Virus record (IMG/VR): IMGVR_UViG_3300012926_000004
Location: 836 to 64,835 of that record
Length of the DNA: 64,000 nt
Reading direction: 5' to 3' (one strand)
Source: a virus
The position numbers and the translations under genes were made by a program. Under the pieces are notes generated by a model. That model was given only the letters and a program-made list of their open reading frames with translations. It was not told the DNA's origin and did not search any database. Shown here piece after piece: positions 391-11,937 of the stretch. Position 1 is the stretch's first letter. Every line of letters begins with the position of its first letter.

Positions 391-2397
391 TTGTTGACAG
401 CGGAAGGGAGTCCGCGAGCAAGCATGCCGATGAATTTTATCCCTGAAGTTTCTGATGATCTAGCCAAGACCGCTACGCAAGTGATTCCTGAGGCTCGTCG
501 GATTTATGTCGATCGCACGCGGCATAAGGACCGGCAGCGATGCAAGCGGCTTCGCTGGTTGTCCTATCACGCCGGAGCTACCTCGAATGGCATCCAGCCC
601 AAGCGCAAGTCTATCCACCTAGTCATTGGCTCAGCAGTGCACGTAGGCATGGAGCATCTCCTCTGGGGCATGCAGGATTACATCAATCAGCACAACCTTA
701 CCGTTGACGAAGGCTTCGCAGCGATCTCAGGGATCAACAGCCAGCGTGTGTGCGAGTTTCTTGAAGACCAAGCTGTAGACGCGGCACTCAAAGACCTCGT
801 AGCAATGACTGAGTTCGGCGTTGAGCTGGACGACCAGGAGAAGTTCGCAGCAGAGAAGGCTAAGACTGCGCTGACGACTGGGTCGCTGAATTCAGCAACA
901 GCGTCCTCCGGCGGCGACTCGATGATCGAGATCACGTTTGAGGATATGGTTCCAGCAGTGCCTGCGCCTAAGGCTGTGCTGCCTGCACCTGTCCAGTCCA
1001 GCATCGTAGACGTATTGCTTGGAGCCAACGCCCTGTCTACCGTCGACTGGGGAACGCCGATCTATCCAGCGTCCAAGAACCTGGTTGAGATCATGGAAGG
1101 TAACGACCCAGCGTTTCAGGTTGGCGATCCAGCGCTCGCCTCCATCGAAATCAACGTCCCAAGCGAACAAGCGAACGCGATGAAAACGGCTGGGCTCGAC
1201 AACTACTTGCTGGAAGAACTAGCCGCCCAGATCGAAGCCCTAGTCCGCGCCTATGCGCGTCGTCGCTGGAAGCCACTCCTCGATCAGTTCGAGATCCTCG
1301 AAGTCGAGCGTGAAGGTGAATGGCAGTTAGGCAAGATCGAGTACGATCGCTGGGTTATCGAGCCTGCAATCACATCTGTACCGGGAGCTGTAGACCCTTT
1401 CTATAGCCAGACTCTGAAGAGGTATGTTGACCAATACGAAATCTGGTTCATGTCCCGGCATGATGCGCTGTTGAAGGAACGCCAGACTGGGTACCTGTAC
1501 CTGCAGTCGTACAAGACTACCGGCTCATGGGACCGGCGCAAGGAAGCTGACGCACAAATAGACATGCAAGGCCTCTCCGAAGCTGTCGATGTCGAAAAGC
1601 GATTCTCGGAAGCCTGGCATATCATCCAACACAGTGGCGGCCCGATCACAAGCATTGATAACCTAGCCGATCAGATGGGCGATGGCCAACAGCTAAATCG
1701 TCTGGTGAACTTGCGCACGGCCAATTGGCTAGCCACGCTTCCAGAGCCGCCACGCATCCTCGGAGTCCGCTACGAGTACATGAACAAAGGCGCACGACGG
1801 CAGGACAAGAACGATACTGAGATGCCGAACCGGTACGTGGCCGACACGCCGCTAATCCGAGCCTATAAAACCGACGGCATCACAGCCGACGATCGCAAGT
1901 GGGGTTGGTCTTACGAAGTCTGTGACGCCTACGGCAAGTCCAAACGTCTCGACTATCGCACCTGGAAGAAGGCACCGATATGGCGGTTCATGACGATCAA
2001 GCAGTGGATTGACTTGCTCGATGCGGACAAGGTCCAGCCTGAGTCCTACGACAAGGAAGGCACCCGGCTCGACGCACTGGCTGACCAGTTCATGACACCG
2101 ATCCATTGCTTTAGAAACGAAGACGACATGCGGGACATGCTGGAGCAATTGCAGGCAGAAGAAGAAGAGAACGCGAGAGACGTGCTCGCTGTCTACGCCG
2201 TCCGCTCCGACCCAGGCAAGATGCGCTCTGAACTCAATCGACGCTTCTCGCAGAACCGTGCCAGCTGTTCGTACCCAGGCAAATGCCAGAACCACGAAAT
2301 CTGCTACGGCAGTGCTGATATCCGTCGTGACCCTGAAGGCAGCGGCCTGTACCAGATCCGCGTGGCAAACCATCCGCAGGAGAATTATCAACCGTAG
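391..2397 (+). CDS. Cas4-like / PD-(D/E)XK exonuclease with large insertion
   Basis: N-terminal Cys (RCKR) plus C-terminal CSYPGKCQNHEIC cluster; GSAVH helix; RHDALL...QSYKT core; adjacent to Sak4-like ATPase and SSB-like gene. True start may be ATG 424 or 430. Confidence 0.75.
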   Translation: MLTAEGSPRASMPMNFIPEVSDDLAKTATQVIPEARRIYVDRTRHKDRQRCKRLRWLSYHAGATSNGIQPKRKSIHLVIGSAVHVGMEHLLWGMQDYINQHNLTVDEGFAAISGINSQRVCEFLEDQAVDAALKDLVAMTEFGVELDDQEKFAAEKAKTALTTGSLNSATASSGGDSMIEITFEDMVPAVPAPKAVLPAPVQSSIVDVLLGANALSTVDWGTPIYPASKNLVEIMEGNDPAFQVGDPALASIEINVPSEQANAMKTAGLDNYLLEELAAQIEALVRAYARRRWKPLLDQFEILEVEREGEWQLGKIEYDRWVIEPAITSVPGAVDPFYSQTLKRYVDQYEIWFMSRHDALLKERQTGYLYLQSYKTTGSWDRRKEADAQIDMQGLSEAVDVEKRFSEAWHIIQHSGGPITSIDNLADQMGDGQQLNRLVNLRTANWLATLPEPPRILGVRYEYMNKGARRQDKNDTEMPNRYVADTPLIRAYKTDGITADDRKWGWSYEVCDAYGKSKRLDYRTWKKAPIWRFMTIKQWIDLLDADKVQPESYDKEGTRLDALADQFMTPIHCFRNEDDMRDMLEQLQAEEEENARDVLAVYAVRSDPGKMRSELNRRFSQNRASCSYPGKCQNHEICYGSADIRRDPEGSGLYQIRVANHPQENYQP

Positions 2398-2426
2398 TTG
2401 ACAAAGGTTTCGCGTAGTGGTATTGT
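2398..2426 (+). promoter_or_regulatory. sigma70-type promoter with extended -10
   Basis: TTGACA-N17-TATTGT with TG-n before the -10. Confidence 0.7.
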
Positions 2427-2440
2427 AGCTCCTGAGAGCA

Positions 2441-2458
2441 AGACAACAGAGACAACAG
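2441..2458 (+). repeat. tandem direct repeat (AGACAACAG)x2, candidate operator
   Basis: exact 9-bp tandem repeat between the promoter and the RHH-like gene. Confidence 0.6.
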
Positions 2459-2521
2459 ATAAGTAAATGATCCTCTTCAGCACCCTCTTCTCCATTACCA
2501 CACATTTCAGAAGGAGCACCA

Positions 2522-2758
2522 ATGCCCAGCGAATACCGCAATCCCAAGCTCAGCAAGAGCGACCCAATGGTGGTCGAGCATATCAAGATTCCGAAGTCAG
2601 TTCTAGCCTCATTGAACATCTCAGCCGCGAGCCGTCAACGTCATCGCTCGTTTGTAGTGCGCGAGATCCTGGAAACATGGAAGGTCCAATTCGACAAAGA
2701 CATGGCTGCAAACGCAGTAGCAGCAGCTAAGTCCAGCAGAAAAACCTCAGCGGCTTAG
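2522..2758 (+). CDS. small ribbon-helix-helix-like DNA-binding protein
   Basis: AAGGAG RBS; beta-strand (VEHIKIP) then helix-helix pattern (SVLASL...RSFVVREIL). Confidence 0.55.
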   Translation: MPSEYRNPKLSKSDPMVVEHIKIPKSVLASLNISAASRQRHRSFVVREILETWKVQFDKDMAANAVAAAKSSRKTSAA

Positions 2759-2775
2759 TCAGACCGCAACGTAGT

Positions 2776-2799
2776 ACAGCTCACAGCTCACAGCTCACA
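2776..2799 (+). repeat. heptamer tandem repeat (ACAGCTC)x3
   Basis: ACAGCTCACAGCTCACAGCTCACA in the intergenic gap before the ATPase. Confidence 0.8.
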
Positions 2800-2835
2800 A
2801 CAACGCTTACCTAATCGCAGAAGGAGCATTACTTC

Positions 2836-3873
2836 ATGGCACGTTCGGGAGTCATCTATGGAGCCTCAGGCACATTCAAATCGACCGCAGGCAAACACTT
2901 CTCCAGGTACATCTACAAGAAAACCGGCAAAGCCACGCTATTATTCAGTCTAGACGGCGGTGGCTGGGGGCCAATGGAGCCTGAGATCCGGGGTGGAATC
3001 ATCCTTCCGTACCGCGGCAACACGCAAGTCCCTCTGCCAGTGCTGCGCAAGATAAGCCAGGGCTACTGGCCTGAGGATTCCGGCGAGACGGAGATCAGCA
3101 AAACCAACCTGCGCTCGATTGACTGGGCACGGTTCGGCGGCCTATTCGTAGAAGGTCTGTCCTCGATCAGCCAAGCTCTAATGCGGCATCTAGCCGATCA
3201 ACAGATCAAGACTGGCGAGGAAGCTACTAGTCCGTTCTCGCAGCGCGTGGTCGTCGAAGGCCAAGTAGTCACTGAAACGTTTGCCGGCAACAGCAAAGCG
3301 CATTATGGATTCGTGCAAAACCAGTTGTACTCCCTGGTCACCAACTTTACCTCTCTCCCTCTTGAATACGTTCTGTTCTCCGCGCTTGAATCACGTACTG
3401 AAGAAGATGATCGCTCGACGATCTACGGGCCGCAGGTCGCAGGCAAAAAGGCTACTGCACTCGTCCCTAGCTGGGTCGGCGACTGTCTGCACTCCGAAGC
3501 TTATCCTGTTGAGAAATTCATCCAGGTTCCTGACCCTAAAGACGCGACGAAGAAGATCGAAACCAGAGTCGTCGAGACTCTAGTCCGCACGTACTTCGTC
3601 AAGCATCCAGACCCCAGCACTGGAATCATGTTTCCGGCGAAACCTCGAATCGACTCTGAGAAAGTCGGCGAACTGATGAAGCTATTTCCAGGTGGATATT
3701 ACGAGCCGTCGCCGTCCCATGGCCTCGACACCTATCTCGAAGCTATTGACTCATTCAACGAGTCCTCAGGAGATGACGCTGGTGACTGGCGTGCTGAAGT
3801 CGATAAAAAGTTTGGTCGTGTGACTGTGGCTGGACCGATTGCCACAGCTTCACTTCCTAAAGCCACCAAGTAA
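2836..3873 (+). CDS. Sak4-like AAA (AAA_24) recombination ATPase
   Basis: P-loop GASGTFKS, FVEGLS Walker B-like motif, YGPQVAGK motif; AAGGAG RBS; Cas4-Sak4-SSB synteny. Confidence 0.8.
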   Translation: MARSGVIYGASGTFKSTAGKHFSRYIYKKTGKATLLFSLDGGGWGPMEPEIRGGIILPYRGNTQVPLPVLRKISQGYWPEDSGETEISKTNLRSIDWARFGGLFVEGLSSISQALMRHLADQQIKTGEEATSPFSQRVVVEGQVVTETFAGNSKAHYGFVQNQLYSLVTNFTSLPLEYVLFSALESRTEEDDRSTIYGPQVAGKKATALVPSWVGDCLHSEAYPVEKFIQVPDPKDATKKIETRVVETLVRTYFVKHPDPSTGIMFPAKPRIDSEKVGELMKLFPGGYYEPSPSHGLDTYLEAIDSFNESSGDDAGDWRAEVDKKFGRVTVAGPIATASLPKATK

Positions 3874-3964
3874 GACAGAGACAGAGAACCTGCTGCTTGC
3901 TGTGCTGCCTTGGTCAACGTTGACCTGAAGTAGAACCATCAACCTGAAGAAAGGACCGAACCTA

Positions 3965-4204
3965 ATGACAACCGAGAATGAAGTCGTAGGAGTTGGAGCA
4001 CCGGCACCGACAAGCATTACCGCAACACCAGCTTCAACAGCATCAGTAACTACGGCGTTGCCAAAGCAGAACACTACCGTCTCCATTACCCTGGACGCTG
4101 ATGTTTATGCCTACTACGCGGCAAAGGCTAAGGAAGACGATCGTAGCCTGGCTAAGTATCTGCAGCGCGAGCTGAAGGCTAAGTTTGATTCTGGAATAGA
4201 GTAA
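3965..4204 (+). CDS. ribbon-helix-helix (CopG/BrnA-like) protein
   Basis: TVSITLDADVYAYYAAKAKEDDRSLAKYLQREL is a typical RHH pattern; AAGGA RBS. Confidence 0.7.
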   Translation: MTTENEVVGVGAPAPTSITATPASTASVTTALPKQNTTVSITLDADVYAYYAAKAKEDDRSLAKYLQRELKAKFDSGIE

Positions 4205-4287
4205 GCCGGCAGGCCCATCAGCTAGGCAACCCACATCCACCGCTCAGCCTGTCTGAGCCACAACAGCACCGAAAGGAAGCACTAACA

Positions 4288-5007
4288 ATGGCTACCAATC
4301 CCGCAACTGATTTTGCATCACCCGTATACATGGAAGAGACGGCTGGCGACGCATCTCTCGCTGACGTAGTCGTAGTCGACCTCAACGATCCCAACCTGCT
4401 GCTGGCAGAGTTCGACACCAACTCTGACATCGATCCTTACGCAGCTCCTCCGCCAGTAGCTGACGGCACCTACCTCGTCAAGATCAAGCAGATTGACGTC
4501 AAGGGACCGAACGGCGAGCTGGTACGTCACACAGTACGCACCGGCACCGGCGAGAATGCCAAAGCCTATGCGTTCACGGCTCTCGAAGCGCGCATCATCG
4601 ATCCCGGCGCTCCGTTCGATAACTTCGTTGTTTTTGACCGTTTTGTCAGCACTCTACCTGCCCGTAACGGTGGCGTGCCGATCGTGCGCATCCTTACCTG
4701 CCTGGGCGTACAGCTTCCGGCTCGTATCAATGCAAAGATCTTGCTCGATGCCTTCTTCAATGCAGTAGCGAGCGAGCCCGAGCTTCGTATCGAGACCGAG
4801 TGGGAAGGTTCTGTGAGCAAGGAAGATGCTGACAAGCTGTATGCCGCTGGCGTGGACAAAAAGAAGTTTCCACGGGTTTATGGAATGCGTAAGTTCCCCC
4901 AAGACAGCAAGGGGAACCCGATTCCTGAGATCGTTGTTGATTCGCCGATTGGCAAATTGGAGCTGCGAGCGAACGTTCGCATTACAGGGTACTTTCCTAA
5001 GGCGTAA
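4288..5007 (+). CDS. DUF669-like single-stranded DNA-binding protein
   Basis: PPPVADGTYLVKIKQID motif; position after Sak4-like gene. Confidence 0.6.
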   Translation: MATNPATDFASPVYMEETAGDASLADVVVVDLNDPNLLLAEFDTNSDIDPYAAPPPVADGTYLVKIKQIDVKGPNGELVRHTVRTGTGENAKAYAFTALEARIIDPGAPFDNFVVFDRFVSTLPARNGGVPIVRILTCLGVQLPARINAKILLDAFFNAVASEPELRIETEWEGSVSKEDADKLYAAGVDKKKFPRVYGMRKFPQDSKGNPIPEIVVDSPIGKLELRANVRITGYFPKA

Positions 5008-5113
5008 CCAAGATTGGCGAGCAGTGGTGTGCAAGCTGATGAAGTGAACCGAAGTGAGCTGGCAGTTGAAAGGCTGCCAGCTCACCTCCCTAACATGGCC
5101 CCGGAGCTCGATC

Positions 5114-5371
5114 ATGGGATATACAGATTTCGACAACAAAGGTTCGTATCAAGGCGACGCTGAGCGCAATGCGGAAGCGATACGCATCCTCAATCGCATC
5201 AAGCCTGCAGTGCTATCCGCCGCAGCCTCCGACGAAGATCTACCAGAGTTCAGCAACAACGCGATGGGATTTGTGATGGGCTTGATCGATACCCTAGATC
5301 TAACAGGCACAGTTCAAGTCACGGTAAAAATGCTGTGGTGGCTCCGCGATCTCAACGATAAGGTGGACTGA
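5114..5371 (+). CDS. hypothetical protein
   Basis: GGAG RBS before ATG 5114; packed in operon. Confidence 0.55.
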   Translation: MGYTDFDNKGSYQGDAERNAEAIRILNRIKPAVLSAAASDEDLPEFSNNAMGFVMGLIDTLDLTGTVQVTVKMLWWLRDLNDKVD

Positions 5372-5378
5372 TCCAGCC

Positions 5379-5759
5379 ATGGCTAAATTCGCAGGCGGAG
5401 TCAGCGTCGACAAAAAGGGATACCTGGTGATCAAAGCTGGGAAGCATCGAGACCGCAGGGTGCATATTATGATCGCGGAAGCGATGCTGGGCCGGGAGCT
5501 AACGGCTGATGAGGATGTCGACCATCGCAACGCCGACAAGCTCGACTGCGACTGGCGTAACCTGAAGGTTATCAGCAAGGCTGAGCACGGTGCTGTCTCG
5601 AACCGCCAGCGATGGTTCCTGGAAAACCGAGCCGAGCAAGAACGTGCTGAATGGGAAGCTTGGATACACAACGGCGGCAATCGCCCTGATGAAGGCCAAG
5701 ACGTAGATATCACAGACGAAGACATAAAGTTCAACCCAGAGGATTTCCCCAATGCCTAA
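5379..5759 (+). CDS. HNH endonuclease (HNH_3-like)
   Basis: RVHIMIAEAMLGREL...VDHRNADKLDCDWRNL motif. Confidence 0.8.
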   Translation: MAKFAGGVSVDKKGYLVIKAGKHRDRRVHIMIAEAMLGRELTADEDVDHRNADKLDCDWRNLKVISKAEHGAVSNRQRWFLENRAEQERAEWEAWIHNGGNRPDEGQDVDITDEDIKFNPEDFPNA

Positions 5760-7296
5760 CGATTACGATCTTGACCTATACCACGATGATGAGCCTGCTG
5801 AAGTAGCTGCAGCACAGCCTTACGATCCGGCTTTGAACCTGACCTTGGCTGATGTAGCTGTAGACGAAGTCAGCACGACCCAGGCCTCCACCGAAGACCT
5901 CTACATCAACTTCGACGAAGATGGCGAGGGCTCGACTTCGTTCGATCCACAGCAAGGCACGCTACGTGAGACCGAATGCAGTTTTATTACGGGGTGTGCG
6001 GGTTCTGGCAAGTCGTATACCCTCCGTCAAAGGATCGCTGAAGATGCCAGTTATGCAGTGCTAGCGGCCACAACCGGCATATCGGCTATCAACCTAAACG
6101 CGGCCACGATTCATTCTCTGCTAGGTTTTCGGGACACCGATTCGCTTCGTGATGCTTACATCAGTGGCAGCGCACAAGGCAAGCTCAAAAAGATCGTTGG
6201 CGAAGGCTACAAGAACGTTGTGATTGATGAGGTCAGTATGCTCAGTCATGAGGCTCTGGATCTGATTGTCAAGATTTTCGATAACGTCAACCAGAACCTG
6301 GCTTACCGTGAAAAAACGATCGGCCTGATCCTGACTGGCGATTTTTGTCAGCTACCTGCTATCCCAGACAAGCCGCGTGTGCCGGGCAGCAAAGTCAAGA
6401 TGCCGACTCCGTGGGCTTTCGATGCCCAGTCATGGAAGCGGTTCGATAAGAACACACTGAAGCTAACGAAGGTCTGGCGGCAGTCGGACGAGCGATACCT
6501 AGCGGCACTGAACTATGCACGCCAGGGCAAAGGCGACATGGCCGCTGGCGCACTCGTTTCCGCTGGAGTCACGTTTGCTGGGACCTCAGATTCTAACTTC
6601 GACGGCACAACGATTGTAGGCAAGAACGAACAAGTGGACCGGTTCAACGAGGCGTCACTGATGAAGCTGCCTGGAAGGTTGATTGGGCTGCCGTCACGCC
6701 GCTGGGGCCGCGAGAGATCCGAATGGAAGAACATTCCAGTGCAGACTAAAATCCGCGAAGGCGCTTATGTCATGCTGCTGGTCAACAAGTACAACGGCTT
6801 TCAGGATCTGGAATACGCTAACGGAGACTGTGGCCACGTGCGCGGCATTCAGCCGAGTCAGAACGGTGCACCACCGCAGGTAATGGTAGAGCTGGCTCGC
6901 AATAACCGGATTGTGTATGTGTCGGCTATTATCCGTGCTGTAGAGACCAAGGACAAGCCGGATGACATGACAGGCGAGATTGACATCAATCTGCGTGATG
7001 ACGTGGGTGGGTATATTCCACAAGCGCATTATCGATGCAACGCGCGTAAGTATGTATCGGGACAGCTGGAGTATTTTCCAATCCGGTTGGCGTATGCCAC
7101 AACGTGCCACAAGGCTCAGGGGTTGTCGCTGGATCGTGTACAGATCGACATGCGCGATTGGATGATGAAGAGTCCGGCGATGACCTATGTGAGTTTGTCT
7201 CGGTGCAGGACGATCGAGGGTCTACGGATTATCGGCCGACCGGATGACGTGCGTGACAAGTGCAGGATCGATCCGAGGGTGCTTCGATGGCTATAG
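5752..7296 (+). CDS. Pif1/RecD-like SF1B DNA helicase
   Basis: GCAGSGKS, IDEVSM, GDFCQL, YATTCHKAQGLSLD, YVSLSR motifs. Confidence 0.92.
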   Translation: MPNDYDLDLYHDDEPAEVAAAQPYDPALNLTLADVAVDEVSTTQASTEDLYINFDEDGEGSTSFDPQQGTLRETECSFITGCAGSGKSYTLRQRIAEDASYAVLAATTGISAINLNAATIHSLLGFRDTDSLRDAYISGSAQGKLKKIVGEGYKNVVIDEVSMLSHEALDLIVKIFDNVNQNLAYREKTIGLILTGDFCQLPAIPDKPRVPGSKVKMPTPWAFDAQSWKRFDKNTLKLTKVWRQSDERYLAALNYARQGKGDMAAGALVSAGVTFAGTSDSNFDGTTIVGKNEQVDRFNEASLMKLPGRLIGLPSRRWGRERSEWKNIPVQTKIREGAYVMLLVNKYNGFQDLEYANGDCGHVRGIQPSQNGAPPQVMVELARNNRIVYVSAIIRAVETKDKPDDMTGEIDINLRDDVGGYIPQAHYRCNARKYVSGQLEYFPIRLAYATTCHKAQGLSLDRVQIDMRDWMMKSPAMTYVSLSRCRTIEGLRIIGRPDDVRDKCRIDPRVLRWL

Positions 7297-7508: not shown

Positions 7509-8321
7509 ATGAAGCATAGCGAGCTCAAACTAAAAGATCGCAGCTCGGGAATGACTACACTGGCATGGCACGACGCCTGCAAAAAGGAAGCTGAGGAATC
7601 TATGGCGGAACATGAAGTGGCTGGAATCGATCCACAGAAACTAGTCGTTCTGGAAACGATCGAGGACAAGCGTGTAGCTGAGTACATTGCTGAGCAGCTG
7701 CGGCAGTCTGTAGTCAAACTGGCCGACAGGGTCGAGCAGGATTACGTAGCGGATTGGAAGGCGGGCGTGGCAGAACGAAACGGTGAGATTCAAAATGCTT
7801 GGGGAGATGTTGTGCAAGCTGAGGACGTAAAAACAGTCAGACAGATTGATGATCTGTATGTGAAGTTCCCGACCGAGGATGAGGATGAGGACGAGGCTAC
7901 GGTTGCGGTTGCCGTTGTCGAGGAGCCTGTGCTGGTAGAGGATGCTGATGGCATTCCAGCTCACCTGCTAGACGTGCCACCGCATCTCTGGCCGACCTAC
8001 GGCGGCATTGAGCGCAACAGCATGCCTAACCCTAACCGTCTGCCGGACTGGACGGCTGAGGCCCCGCCGCAAGCTCATCGTCGCGTTCGTACTGAGCCAC
8101 GCGCCAAGCACGTCCAGTCAGCATTCAACAAGACGTTTACGCGTGACAACCCGAAGCGTCCAGGGATGAACCTACCGATCAAGCGTGCTGAGAGTAAGAA
8201 TCCTGAAGGTTTGACGGGGCGGCAATTGAAGAAGGCGCGCAAAGCTTTACAACGTGAACAGAAAGCTGTTGATTTAGCACGAACAGAGATGTTCGAGAAA
8301 GTTAGCGAGGGGGTAGAGTAA
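7509..8321 (+). CDS. hypothetical protein (acidic middle, basic C-terminus)
   Basis: 270-codon ORF tightly packed in operon. Confidence 0.65.
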   Translation: MKHSELKLKDRSSGMTTLAWHDACKKEAEESMAEHEVAGIDPQKLVVLETIEDKRVAEYIAEQLRQSVVKLADRVEQDYVADWKAGVAERNGEIQNAWGDVVQAEDVKTVRQIDDLYVKFPTEDEDEDEATVAVAVVEEPVLVEDADGIPAHLLDVPPHLWPTYGGIERNSMPNPNRLPDWTAEAPPQAHRRVRTEPRAKHVQSAFNKTFTRDNPKRPGMNLPIKRAESKNPEGLTGRQLKKARKALQREQKAVDLARTEMFEKVSEGVE

Positions 8322-8770
8322 TGGCATTGGAAGCAGATGATTGGGGAGTAGCTGAAGCAACGCCGAGTGACCGTGAGATCGAGGAGCACGATGCAGGTTA
8401 TGCGATTACGCGCTTAGTTCAGCTCGTGCATGAGCGCAACGTAGCAGTCGGCTGGTGGTCGGATCTGTACACGAACATGCCGTTGGATCGCAACGTTGGC
8501 GAGATGTTGATGTTGGTCGTGTCCGAGATCTCCGAGGCGATGGAAGGTCATCGCAAGCGTCTATATGACGATCACATTATTGGCAGGCCTATGGTTGAGG
8601 TTGAGCTCGCTGACGCGCTGATTCGCATATTTGATATTGCAGGCGGGATCAAGTTCAACGGTCAGCCTTTGGATCTGGGTGGCGCTTTCGAGGAGAAGTT
8701 AGCGTATAACCGAGAACGGTTGGATCACAAGGCAGCAAGCCGTTTGGAAGAGAACGGTAAGAAGTACTAG
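8321..8770 (+). CDS. MazG-like nucleotide pyrophosphohydrolase
   Basis: SEISEAMEG...EVELADALIRIFD (ExxE...ExAD) motif. Confidence 0.85.
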   Translation: MALEADDWGVAEATPSDREIEEHDAGYAITRLVQLVHERNVAVGWWSDLYTNMPLDRNVGEMLMLVVSEISEAMEGHRKRLYDDHIIGRPMVEVELADALIRIFDIAGGIKFNGQPLDLGGAFEEKLAYNRERLDHKAASRLEENGKKY

Positions 8771-8844: not shown

Positions 8845-11800
8845 TTGAAAGCTGACCTGCTTATGTGGAGACAAAAACCTAGCTCATGTGATGGATGCCA
8901 GTGCCAGCCGATGGGATCTGACTTTAGCCAGCCTGAAGGTTTGGGTTTGCTGGGCGTAGCGATCGTAGCTGAAGCCAGTGGTGAGAAGGAGGCTGCTGAA
9001 CAGTTGCCACTGAGGCCCCATGCACCCTCAGGCATGATCCTGGAACGAACCCTGCGCCGTCTTGGTTACACGCGCGATCAGTTTGCTATCACCAACTGCA
9101 TCCGCTGCCGACCGACAGAGAACTATCTCGACGGAGCACCTTACGAGAAAGAAGTTATCAAACATTGTCAGCCTAATTTACTCAGCTTCTTAAGGCGGTT
9201 CCAGCCTAAGGTTGTAGTCGCGCTCGGCAACGTAGCTTTCAGAACGCTGACCGGAATCTCAGGCGAGAAACAATCTGTGACGCACATGCGAGGATACGTG
9301 TTCAGAGCGTTGCCGGAGTTCTGCGCGGCAGCAGGTACGCAGGACTTGTTGGTGGTGCCAACCTATCATCCAGCTTTTCTACGCCGCGGAAAAATCAACC
9401 TAACAGGAGTCTTCGCTCGGGACATACAACGTGCTGTCAACATCCGTTCGGGCAAGGATCGCTCGTTTATCCTTGATCTGCCAGACTTCGCAGCTCAAGA
9501 GATTGCATGGATCGAGAACCCAGATAACAAAGAACCGTTTGGTGGGCCGCCGCCAGAGTTCTATCAGAAGATCGCTGAGACATGGCTAGCGAAATATAAC
9601 CTGCGCTACCAACTCAAGCCGAACCTACAGGAACTTGACATCTTCTGCCGTGATATCAAAGCGCGCTCGGAGTCCTGGGCCGTGCAATCCCCTGACATGA
9701 AAGCAGCTGACCTGTTAGGGCTATCGTGGGATCTGGAAACCTTCGAATCAGCCTCACTCGACGAAGACGAATCGGATGGCTATACGGACACCAAAATCCG
9801 TCTCTTCCAAGCGTCGATCCAACCAGGCACTGGCATCGCTATGCCCTGGGAAGGGAACTACATTCATGCTGCACGATTCCTGATGAAGCTACCGCTGCCT
9901 AAAATCGGCCATAACTCCTGGTTGTTCGATCAACGGGTTATGCGCGCAGTTGGCGAACGTGACTTCGGCAGTCGGCTGAACCTGAAGCACAATGGTGATA
10001 GCTACGATACCCTGCAGATGTTCCATTACTGGCAGCCGGATCTTCCAGCGCATTTGCAGTATGCCGCATCGTTCACACAGTTCCCATTTCCGTGGAAGCA
10101 TCTCAATGGGGTCAATCTAGAGTTGTATGGCATTGCTGACGTGGACGCAGCGCTGCGTACGTACATCATCATGCGCAAGACGATGGAAGATCGCAAGATT
10201 TGGTTTGACAATGAAAATCCCCAGCGTCAGGCTGCAGGGTACCTAGCTATGGTCCAAGCAGTGCGGCCTATTCTCGCGGACATGGAAGACCGGGGTGTGC
10301 CGATCGACGATGCCCGGCGGATCACACTGGATAAAGATTTCGAAGAAGCCCAGACTGAGGAGATGACGTATTTAGACGCGAAGTTCCCAGATGGCGCACG
10401 GAAGCTAACGCCCAAAGAAGGCTATAAGGGAATTCCGAAGCGGGTGAAGGAGCTGTTGGAAGAGCTGCGGCCTACCGTAGTGCCTGAAGTTCAGAGCGCA
10501 AAGCCTGGAAAGCCGCCAACGAAGAAGGCAATTGCTGAAGCTACTAAGGCTGCGTTCGCAGCACGATACGCTAACTTGCAGCTGGACGAATTGGAGCTGA
10601 TCCGCAACACTAAATTCTTCGACCCGCCGGAGATCAACGAGGATGGAATCGAGGAGCCTGGCGAAAGCTACTACTTCGATCAGCGTGTGTTTGGCCAACA
10701 GCAACTTGATAATGGAATCAAGACTGCAGGTCAGACTCTATGGTGCCGTGTGTATCAGTTCTCACCAAACTCCTCGAAGCAGCTAATGAGTTACATGCGG
10801 TTCCGTGGGCACAAGGTTCCAACTAAAAAAGGCGGCGAGGAAACAACTGGTAAAGTTGAGCTGGTTCGGTTGTCAGCTAAGCATGGAGATGACTTCTATA
10901 CGCGTGTGATCGATTGCCGCGAACTGGGTAAGATGCGCAGTACTTACATCGAAGGCTTCAAGCCACACGCTGACGGCAGAGTGCATTCAACGTTTACGTT
11001 CGATACGGCCACAATGCAGCTCAGCAGCCGAAAGCCTAACCAGCAGAACGTTATCAAGCATGGCAAGCTGGCCAAAGCTGTGCGGTCAATGTATAAGCAT
11101 CCAGCAGGCAAGTTGTTTGTCGAGTGGGATTTCAAAGCCTATCACGTGCTGACGACTGGCTTCGAAGCTCGCAGCAAGAACTACATGCGCCTGGCTCGGC
11201 TCGACATGCACAGCTTTGTAGCCGGCCACTTCAACCGTGACTGGGACGCGTTCAAGTTGTTCAATGAGCCTGATGAGGAGCTGTTAGCTAAGTTCAAATG
11301 GTTCAAGTCGGACAAGGCTCGGAAGGTAATCCGAGATAAGAAAGCTAAGCCGAGCATTCTAGGCATTGGCTTCGGCCTGGGCGTAAAGAAGCTGTATGAG
11401 ATGAACCGCGAGTCGTTCAAGGATCTGCGCGAGGCGGAGAATCTGATGCAGACGATCAAGGATTTGTTCCCGGAGGTTTTCAGGTGGCAGAACCAGATCA
11501 GAGATCTCGCACACAAACAACAGTTTCTGCGGAATAGGTTCGGCGCGCTCAGGCATTTCTATGAAGTGTATGCCCCAGACGGCCGTGGAGGCTGGAAGCC
11601 TGGCGATCAGTCAGAGCAAGCCATTGCGTTCTTGCCGGCTAGCTCCGCATTCGGCAACATTCGCGAGTGCATGAAGACGATGGACCGCAAGGGTTTGCTA
11701 GAGAAATGGGAACTGGTCAACACCGTGCATGACTCGTTCGTGTTTCTGGTCGAGCCTGGGCTTATGCCGCAGCATATTGCTGAGATGTATCCTGTGTTGC

Positions 11801-11937
11801 ACGCTCCTAGCAGGGTACTGATCGATGAGGAGCTTGCACCACAGGGGCTGCAGGTGGACGTTGAATGCAGTAGTGGAATTACATGGGCCGATTCTGAGGA
11901 GGTAGCTATTCCTGCTGAAGTGCTTGCGGCAGACTAG
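8845..11937 (+). CDS. polA: family A DNA polymerase with N-terminal UDG-like domain and 3'-5' exonuclease
   Basis: UDG: CDGC, TNCIRCRP, VVALG, TYHPAF. Exo: DLET, HNSWLFD, YGIAD. Pol: SSRKPNQQN, WDFKAYH, AKPSILGIGFG, VHDS. Start may be ATG 8863. Confidence 0.92.
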   Translation: MKADLLMWRQKPSSCDGCQCQPMGSDFSQPEGLGLLGVAIVAEASGEKEAAEQLPLRPHAPSGMILERTLRRLGYTRDQFAITNCIRCRPTENYLDGAPYEKEVIKHCQPNLLSFLRRFQPKVVVALGNVAFRTLTGISGEKQSVTHMRGYVFRALPEFCAAAGTQDLLVVPTYHPAFLRRGKINLTGVFARDIQRAVNIRSGKDRSFILDLPDFAAQEIAWIENPDNKEPFGGPPPEFYQKIAETWLAKYNLRYQLKPNLQELDIFCRDIKARSESWAVQSPDMKAADLLGLSWDLETFESASLDEDESDGYTDTKIRLFQASIQPGTGIAMPWEGNYIHAARFLMKLPLPKIGHNSWLFDQRVMRAVGERDFGSRLNLKHNGDSYDTLQMFHYWQPDLPAHLQYAASFTQFPFPWKHLNGVNLELYGIADVDAALRTYIIMRKTMEDRKIWFDNENPQRQAAGYLAMVQAVRPILADMEDRGVPIDDARRITLDKDFEEAQTEEMTYLDAKFPDGARKLTPKEGYKGIPKRVKELLEELRPTVVPEVQSAKPGKPPTKKAIAEATKAAFAARYANLQLDELELIRNTKFFDPPEINEDGIEEPGESYYFDQRVFGQQQLDNGIKTAGQTLWCRVYQFSPNSSKQLMSYMRFRGHKVPTKKGGEETTGKVELVRLSAKHGDDFYTRVIDCRELGKMRSTYIEGFKPHADGRVHSTFTFDTATMQLSSRKPNQQNVIKHGKLAKAVRSMYKHPAGKLFVEWDFKAYHVLTTGFEARSKNYMRLARLDMHSFVAGHFNRDWDAFKLFNEPDEELLAKFKWFKSDKARKVIRDKKAKPSILGIGFGLGVKKLYEMNRESFKDLREAENLMQTIKDLFPEVFRWQNQIRDLAHKQQFLRNRFGALRHFYEVYAPDGRGGWKPGDQSEQAIAFLPASSAFGNIRECMKTMDRKGLLEKWELVNTVHDSFVFLVEPGLMPQHIAEMYPVLHAPSRVLIDEELAPQGLQVDVECSSGITWADSEEVAIPAEVLAAD

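Follow-up and report, generated by a model that had tools for sequence, protein, structure and literature searches.

The 64-kb window analysed here is taken from a 65,155-nt viral contig of IMG/VR (record IMGVR_UViG_3300012926_000004, rated 65% complete), and it carries on its plus strand a single gene in which a uracil-DNA glycosylase (UDG), a 3'-5' exonuclease and a family A DNA polymerase (PolA) are fused. The product is probably the phage's own replicative DNA polymerase, a member of a UDG-PolA clade whose pocket for the base pair and the sugar appears to have been rebuilt on the stem lineage; this reading, based on sequence comparison, is held with moderate confidence. The clade is large, belongs to uncultured, mostly soil phages and is so far undescribed, as literature searches on a His steric gate in PolA, on UDG-PolA in metagenomes and on Leu762 polymerases returned no description of it. 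UDG-PolA fusions themselves are already known, and what is new is a subfamily of them with an alternative pocket. The original prediction, made from the DNA letters, had proposed a polymerase with intact catalytic Asp residues and a rewired minor-groove and steric-gate network, adapted to a modified base, altered sugar selectivity or lesion bypass rather than decayed.

Residues are numbered throughout from the TTG at 8845, where the open reading frame (ORF) 8845-11937 begins on the plus strand; the polymerase region at 10975-11760 corresponds to its residues 711-972. The Klenow part of the reference enzyme, E. coli Pol I from NC_000913, was aligned with 84 relatives (MAFFT) and by a family hidden Markov model (HMM), and then in a MAFFT alignment with eight comparison enzymes: E. 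coli Pol I, N4 gp39 and those of Pseudomonas phage Almagne, Brevundimonas phage StAshley, Microcystis phage Mel-JY34, Caudoviricetes sp. MW202554, Thermus phage phiLo (SP15-like) and Bacillus cereus phage HSE3. Counts for the clade refer to an HMM alignment of 265 relatives, reaching down to about 34% identity. The motifs of the polymerase domain, with their E. coli counterparts, are as follows.

11005-11028, plus strand: equivalent of the TGR motif, TATMQLSS, with Q725 for R668
11047-11061, plus strand: NVIKH, with H739 for R682 (MAFFT mapping)
11128-11151, plus strand: motif A, DFKAYHVL, with D762 (D705) kept, H767 for the steric-gate E710 and L769 for R712
11200-11214, plus strand: LDMHS, with H789 as the equivalent of H734, aligning with the DIH of all outgroups
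11332-11376, plus strand: motif B (O-helix), RDKKAKPSILGIGFG, with R830, D831 (position 754), K835 (K758), L839 (F762), G840 (G763) and F843 (Y766)
11602-11655, plus strand: motif 6 (helix Q), GDQSEQAIAFLPASSAFG, with A928 at N845 and A932 at Q849, the register being taken from bridging sequences
11722-11742, plus strand: motif C, TVHDSFV, with H962 and D963 (H881 and D882) kept and S964 for E883

The catalytic residues of family A are thus in place, and D762, D963, K835 and H962 are each found in 259-263 of the 265 relatives (D762 in 262, K835 in 259, the HD of motif C in 263), with H789 in 258. The Arg of the TGR motif is missing: Gln725 stands here and in 248 of the 265, the remaining rows being intein insertions or fragments, as against Arg in all eight outgroups. 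Czernecki et al. 2023 report this Arg and the residues of motifs A, B and C as conserved throughout their 19 PolA clusters, and the TGR motif as conserved in related RNA polymerases as well (PMC10201439). The steric-gate Glu is likewise replaced, by a His (H767) present in 258 of the 265, while seven of the eight outgroups have Glu and Mel-JY34 has Asp; one intein-free relative (P0079) has Phe at this position. In motif B, L839 is shared by 223 relatives and R830 by 255, this invariant Arg lying one residue upstream of the R754 position, which is occupied by D831. Other positions are more variable, namely 739 (His 164, Arg 30, Thr 21, Lys 12), 843 (F 161, N 55, L 31, Y 11) and 964 (Ser 195, Ala 48). 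Residue 724 (11014-11016) is Met in the analysed protein and in only 6 of the 265 relatives, while 188 of them and the canonical enzymes have the Gly of TGR/TGQ.

For motif 6, the original prediction had placed Ala at both N845 and Q849. An alternative register, in which P847 pairs with P931 so that N845 becomes F929 and Q849 becomes S933, came from MAFFT with E. coli alone; it drew apparent support from the helical face of the residues and from the 'WPTQ' of MW202554, and was dropped after the eight-outgroup alignment and in view of the members with Gln932. In the HMM and in the eight-outgroup alignment, the canonical phage pattern N-[FY]-P-x-Q-S-S-A-H matches A-[FY]-L-P-A-[NS]-x-A-[FH] of the clade, and both ANFPHQSSAHD of StAshley and QNYPIQSS of phiLo align with the same pattern extended by a Gly (A-[FY]-L-P-A-[NS]-x-A-[FH]-G). 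Since these two alignments and the Gln932 of 26 clade members agree, N845 corresponds to A928 and Q849 to A932. Position 928 is A in 226 and S in 34 of the 265 and never Asn, and position 932 is A in 181, S in 51 and Q in 26. The other residue assignments of the original prediction also stand against the PolA outgroups and are not the product of a shifted register: the equivalents of D705, K758 and H881-D882 are kept by both MAFFT and the family HMM; the motifs quoted for R668Q, E710H, R712L, F762L and Y766F all occur within 10975-11760 and align as proposed; and R754 is indeed displaced. To that list can be added the retention of H734 and the replacement of R682 by His and of E883 by Ser.

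The signature is not a peculiarity of one contig. In a word-indexed search, the top 120 clusters were nearly all UDG+PolA fusions with 45-85% identity over the polymerase domain, and an exhaustive phmmer search of 1.84 billion representatives gave 368 clusters (at 50% identity) at E <= 1e-30. The Q725/H767 pair is present in essentially all 265 relatives, the exceptions being nearly all inteins in the motifs or fragments, and as judged from these alignments its recurrence is far beyond chance. A FastTree phylogeny of 205 intein-free polymerase domains of the clade and seven outgroups (HSE3 was left out) recovered the clade as monophyletic with a support of 0.73, on a stem branch of 0.87 substitutions per site. 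Its sister is the pair Mel-JY34 and MW202554 (support 1.0 for the joint node), followed by phiLo, and the closest cultured phage is only about 25% identical. The change of E883 to Ser is placed by these comparisons before the origin of the clade, because the sister polymerases of MW202554 and Mel-JY34 share HDS in motif C; the other changes are specific to the clade.

Several lines of evidence point to a working enzyme. Comparison with an orthologue of 83% identity gives a dN/dS of 0.07 overall, falling to 0.055 across the palm and fingers, values that are approximate as synonymous sites are near saturation. Inteins generally favour essential catalytic motifs, and in the relatives they interrupt TGQLS/S in frame, follow immediately on the Asp-Tyr/Phe of motif A, and occur in motif B and at other sites, such sites being taken only where they were visible in the local sequence, since the mapping of large insertions by hmmalign is imprecise. 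Many relatives (P0004, P0007, P0014, P0025, P0026, P0177, P0203 and others) reach 1200-1700 aa through inteins and homing endonucleases (Pfam LAGLIDADG, Hint). Related loci in IMG/VR number 60, many of them on genomes that have terminal repeats and measure 55-74 kb or 93-101 kb, and family searches were run on 38 genomes that carry the polymerase, 34 of which are at least 90% complete. Each of the 38 has one PolA gene and none has PolB. The substitutions are therefore not decay, being fixed in a deep clade under strong purifying selection, with catalytic and exonuclease residues intact, in the sole polymerase found in these genomes. In this respect the original prediction was correct; the modified base that it offered as one possible cause is a different matter and is taken up below.

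The whole gene and its two upstream domains are laid out as follows.

8863-11937, plus strand: UDG / 3'-5' exonuclease / family A polymerase fusion gene (from Pfam, the starts of homologues and an AlphaFold model)
8869-9444, plus strand: family-4 UDG-like domain, with C15, C18, C88 and C108 and the motifs AEASGEKE, TNCIRCRP and YHPAFLRR
9730-10140, plus strand: 3'-5' exonuclease motifs, Exo I D296/E298, Exo II D362 and Exo III Y428/D432

The TTG at 8845 is the first possible start, and the real one is most likely the ATG at 8863, because homologues open with M..R.KP.SC..C; the same N-termini make the CxxC at 8887-8898 part of the protein. The database product begins at the ATG at 8911 (1008 aa), which is too short and cuts off this CxxC, the first two cysteines of the cluster. 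Pfam recognises the UDG superfamily (PF03167) at residues 38-184 (E = 1.6e-17, 64.3 bits against a cut-off of 24.3) and DNA_pol_A (PF00476) at residues 619-1014 (E = 1.1e-21, 77.7 bits against 34.3), and PHROGs places the fusion protein in a DNA polymerase family (E = 2e-56). An AlphaFold2 model of the fusion protein, built with 82 relatives, reached a pLDDT of 92 and a pTM of 0.86. With Foldseek it matched Klenow, Bst and Taq at TM 0.72-0.79 (normalised to the target) and 15-16% identity, and the modelled polymerase domain is of the Klenow-type fold. The best viral matches in BFVD are long (800-1050 aa) phage family A polymerases of 12-18% identity, several of the top ones presumably polymerases of N4-like phages, with SP-15 at rank 42. 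The cryo-EM structures of YerA41 and phiLo were not returned by the sequence and fold searches of the PDB, being probably newer than the library.

Residues 9-199 match the solved family-4 UDGs in phmmer (E = 2.4e-13), and E43, N84, H175-P176 and the four cysteines are conserved across the clade, so that the domain is probably active. In the analysed protein, motif A of the UDG reads AEASG in place of GE(A/G)PG, and a Leu stands at the Phe of 'PF', which in family-4 enzymes stacks on the uracil. The exonuclease residues D296, E298, D362, Y428 and D432 correspond to Klenow D355, E357, D424, Y497 and D501; 81-84 of the 84 relatives retain them, and the exonuclease is probably a working, proofreading one.

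Three groups of UDG-PolA enzymes have been known: N4-like with a dead UDG, SPO1-like, and SP15-like, in which the UDG is active and the genomes are T-hypermodified (PMC10201439, PMC13697223). The SP15-like enzymes (phiLo, YerA41, SP-15; Missoury et al. 2026, PMC13697223) share with the clade an N-terminal family-4 UDG with its catalytic Glu and His and a proofreading PolA, yet phiLo keeps R668, E710, R712 and Q849. The phiLo enzyme has 1175 aa as against 1024 here, and the SP15-like group has Insert 1, Insert 2 and a C-terminal domain of about 80 aa, a comparison made on lengths only. The SP15-like phages also combine hypermodified thymidine with Pol X and a ligase, whereas in the 38 genomes of the clade ThyA (PF00303), Pol X (PF14792) and ATP-dependent ligase (PF01068) were found in none, the control search for Pol X being weak. 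N4-like enzymes (cluster 17, PMC10201439) have the same three-domain layout, but they have lost the catalytic residues of the UDG and carry Phe at position 3 of motif B, where the analysed enzyme keeps the UDG residues and has Leu839; N4 gp39 keeps R668 and E710 and shows the weakest HMM similarity (E = 1.6e-10).

The sister enzymes of MW202554 and Mel-JY34 resemble the clade in the order UDG, exonuclease, PolA as well as in the HDS of motif C, but have Arg668, Glu or Asp at position 710, and Gln849, at an identity of only about 25%. Of all named phage records, MW202554 scored best with the HMM (E = 2e-32, in the UDG-exonuclease part). In that record (L003, 1727-4364) the UDG-exonuclease (419 aa) and the polymerase (408 aa) are annotated as two ORFs about 150 nt apart; a genuine split of the gene, a frameshift or an insertion that escaped recognition may lie behind this. 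Bacterial DNA polymerase I (Klenow, Bst, Taq) has the fold, the metal-binding Asp residues, K758, H734, H881 and the exonuclease motifs in common with the clade; it is without the UDG domain, and its R668, E710, F762, Y766, N845 and Q849 are canonical. The Leu762 polymerases of the virioplankton (Nasko et al. 2018, PMC6302109; phiJL001-like and SPO2-like clusters, PMC10201439) share the Leu at position 3 of motif B; neither a UDG fusion nor positions 668 and 710 are mentioned for them in those papers, and the Leu clusters reportedly retain the rest of the conserved residues of the motifs. DpoZ of the 2-aminoadenine phages would be expected to occur together with PurZ (PF00709), which is absent from the 38 genomes; the analysed protein has Phe at position 4 of motif B, but this position varies within the clade. 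In StAshley (L078, ON529865, 65-5975), QueC, QueD and QueE for 7-deazaguanine synthesis lie directly upstream of a UDG-PolA in which Arg668 and Glu710 are canonical.

The surroundings of the polymerase gene were examined for replication and nucleotide-modification functions. Genes recognised upstream of it in the window include the following.

391-2397, plus strand: 668-aa PD-(D/E)XK-like protein, with nuclease look-alikes (tblastn, 37 of 60 loci)
2836-3873, plus strand: Sak4-like ATPase (AAA_24; phrog_124; tblastn, 42 of 60 loci)
4288-5007, plus strand: DUF669-like protein (tblastn, 36 of 60 loci)
5752-7296, plus strand: PIF1/Dda-like superfamily 1 helicase (Pfam PIF1, E = 4.7e-15; phrog_325, E = 9.5e-56; 38 of 60 loci)
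8321-8770, plus strand: MazG-like nucleotide pyrophosphatase (phrog_5658, E = 2.3e-52)

The first four form a replication module that is conserved around the polymerase in 36-42 of the 60 loci; no primase was recognised in its region (391-7296), and beyond the module no neighbour of the polymerase is conserved across the 60 loci. The phage thus brings its own helicase and accessory proteins to a polymerase which is the only one in these genomes, conserved, selected and of Klenow fold. In a relative of 85% identity (L006), an HNH_3 endonuclease gene lies at 6544-6924, just upstream of the helicase gene, and in the window itself the interval 5007-5752 holds only a minus-strand ORF (5300-5752) with no family match. 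In a scan of GTDB genomes, the polymerase was found only on short contigs in metagenome-assembled genomes, three of Terriglobia or Terracidiphilus, one of Solirubrobacterales and one of Salinisphaerales, and no prophage carrying it was found; these bins hint weakly at an acidobacterial (Acidobacteriota) host.

The pyrophosphatase at 8321-8770 is the MazG-like enzyme in which the original prediction saw a clue to the substrate of the polymerase. The gene is real, as a match to phrog_5658, which was used for the genome counts since Pfam MazG misses even this gene. Because the family is present in only 2 of the 38 genomes and 1 of the 60 loci, it is not linked to the polymerase signature. The search for base-modification genes elsewhere in the genome, which that prediction had called for, revealed no known pathway in the 38 genomes: ThyA-type hydroxymethylase (ThyA), PurZ, TGT/DpdA and dUTPase were each found in none, and an ordinary ThyX in three. 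Measured against a complete relative (G001, L070-L072; 100,815 bp, terminal repeats), the analysed contig is short by about 36.6 kb (48,582-85,231 of that relative's record). That stretch codes for a GT1/GT4 glycosyltransferase adjoining a class I methyltransferase (Methyltransf_23), for a DUF932 protein and for a trio of PNKP kinase-phosphatase, Rnl1-like RNA ligase and RlaP nucleotidyltransferase; no nucleotide-modification pathway was recognisable in it. Neither the modified-base reading nor the MazG link is supported by these data.

The favoured reading can be put as follows. On the stem lineage, the minor-groove donors would have been replaced (R668 by Gln, N845 by Ala, Q849 by Ala or Ser), together with the sugar pocket (E710 by His, F762 by Leu, Y766 by Phe, Asn or Leu) and its charged neighbours (R682 by His, R712 by Leu, R754 moved by one residue), while ordinary DNA would still be made from dNTPs. 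As far as the alignment can suggest, Gln725 may hydrogen-bond less strongly to the primer end in the minor groove; the role of Arg668 is taken here from the title of McCain et al. 2005, a paper cited in PMC1934989. His767 may block the 2'-OH, in the way proposed for His760 of Pol III alpha (PMC8485763). The joint loss of positive charge (R668, R682, R712) and negative charge (E710, with E883 already Ser before the clade) would be compensatory, the template-side contacts of N845 and Q849 may have been dropped or become water-mediated, and fidelity would rest more on exonuclease proofreading. The UDG domain probably removes uracil from the template before it is copied, resembling the scanning of the SP15-like enzymes; in phiLo and YerA41 the UDG has been shown to be active and coupled to replication (PMC13697223). 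Such a role fits the lack of dUTPase in the 38 genomes.

Some points weigh against this account. Mutating R668 or E710 in Klenow is strongly deleterious. Both residues are moreover described as conserved in all 19 PolA clusters (PMC10201439), so that an unchanged function carried out by other residues is a substantive claim, not to be taken as the default. A rebuilt minor-groove readout and sugar pocket is also what one would expect if the substrate differed. The complete relative has a glycosyltransferase beside a methyltransferase of unassigned target, and most genes in these genomes are without a family match, which leaves room for an unrecognised modification pathway.

These last points lead to the explanation that the pocket was rebuilt for DNA with a non-canonical nucleotide, seen in the minor groove or the sugar (a C2- or N2-substituted purine or a 2'-modified sugar, for example) and made by unrecognised enzymes, which is considered unlikely. 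The changed residues are indeed those which read the minor groove and the sugar, modified thymidine is a feature of the phages from which UDG-PolAs with an intact UDG are known (PMC10201439, PMC13697223), most early genes lack a family match, and the glycosyltransferase adjoins the methyltransferase. Yet the gene counts given above, with ThyA, PurZ, TGT/DpdA and dUTPase in none of the 38 genomes, ThyX in three and the MazG-like gene in two, run the other way, as does the lack of a conserved neighbour beyond the replication module. C5-pyrimidine modifications, furthermore, lie in the major groove and are handled by the SP15-like polymerases (PMC13697223), of which phiLo keeps R668 and E710. T-hypermodified phages resist standard sequencing (PMC13697223, PMC12686479), whereas complete genomes of this clade with terminal repeats assemble from public metagenomes. 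In its most far-reaching form, perhaps hundreds of soil phage lineages would carry DNA with a minor-groove or sugar modification from unannotated genes, and would have lost Arg668, Asn845, Gln849 and the Glu gate since a canonical readout would reject such DNA; this is a little less likely still.

Equally doubtful as the non-canonical nucleotide in general is the proposal that the relaxed minor-groove check is an adaptation of the polymerase to its own UDG, which would make abasic sites in the template immediately in front of the polymerase; without the template-side contacts of Asn845 and Gln849, insertion opposite such sites and extension from them would be easier. The hallmarks of the UDG are conserved, uracil may enter DNA more often where dUTPase is lacking, and the SP15-like enzymes excise template dU and bypass the abasic site, with dA preferred (PMC13697223). 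On the other hand, phiLo manages this bypass with R668 and E710 kept, so the rebuilding is not needed for it; the Pol X and ligase that complete SP15-like repair were not found in the 38 genomes, with the weak Pol X control already mentioned; and the UDG activity is a prediction for a protein with Leu at the uracil-stacking Phe. As for an inactive remnant in a phage replicated by the host polymerase, for which the loss of R668, E710 and Q849, reported essential in Klenow, might speak, it is most improbable in view of the same replacements fixed in hundreds of diverged sequences, the low dN/dS of the palm and fingers, the invariant metal-binding Asp residues, K758, H734 and H881, the inteins kept in frame inside the motifs and the phage's own helicase and other replication proteins.

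The present analysis describes, by comparison of sequences, an abundant variant of UDG-PolA with an unusually rebuilt pocket, through which a fourth, abundant and uncultured group joins the known fusions of UDG and polymerase. Arg668, Gln849, Asn845 and Glu710 are the textbook residues by which family A polymerases check base-pair geometry and exclude ribonucleotides, and the clade is a natural experiment on how much of this base-pair-checking network is truly required. It is also a source of enzymes that may tolerate substrates modified in the minor groove or the sugar, with a use in unnatural base pairs and xeno nucleic acids (XNA).

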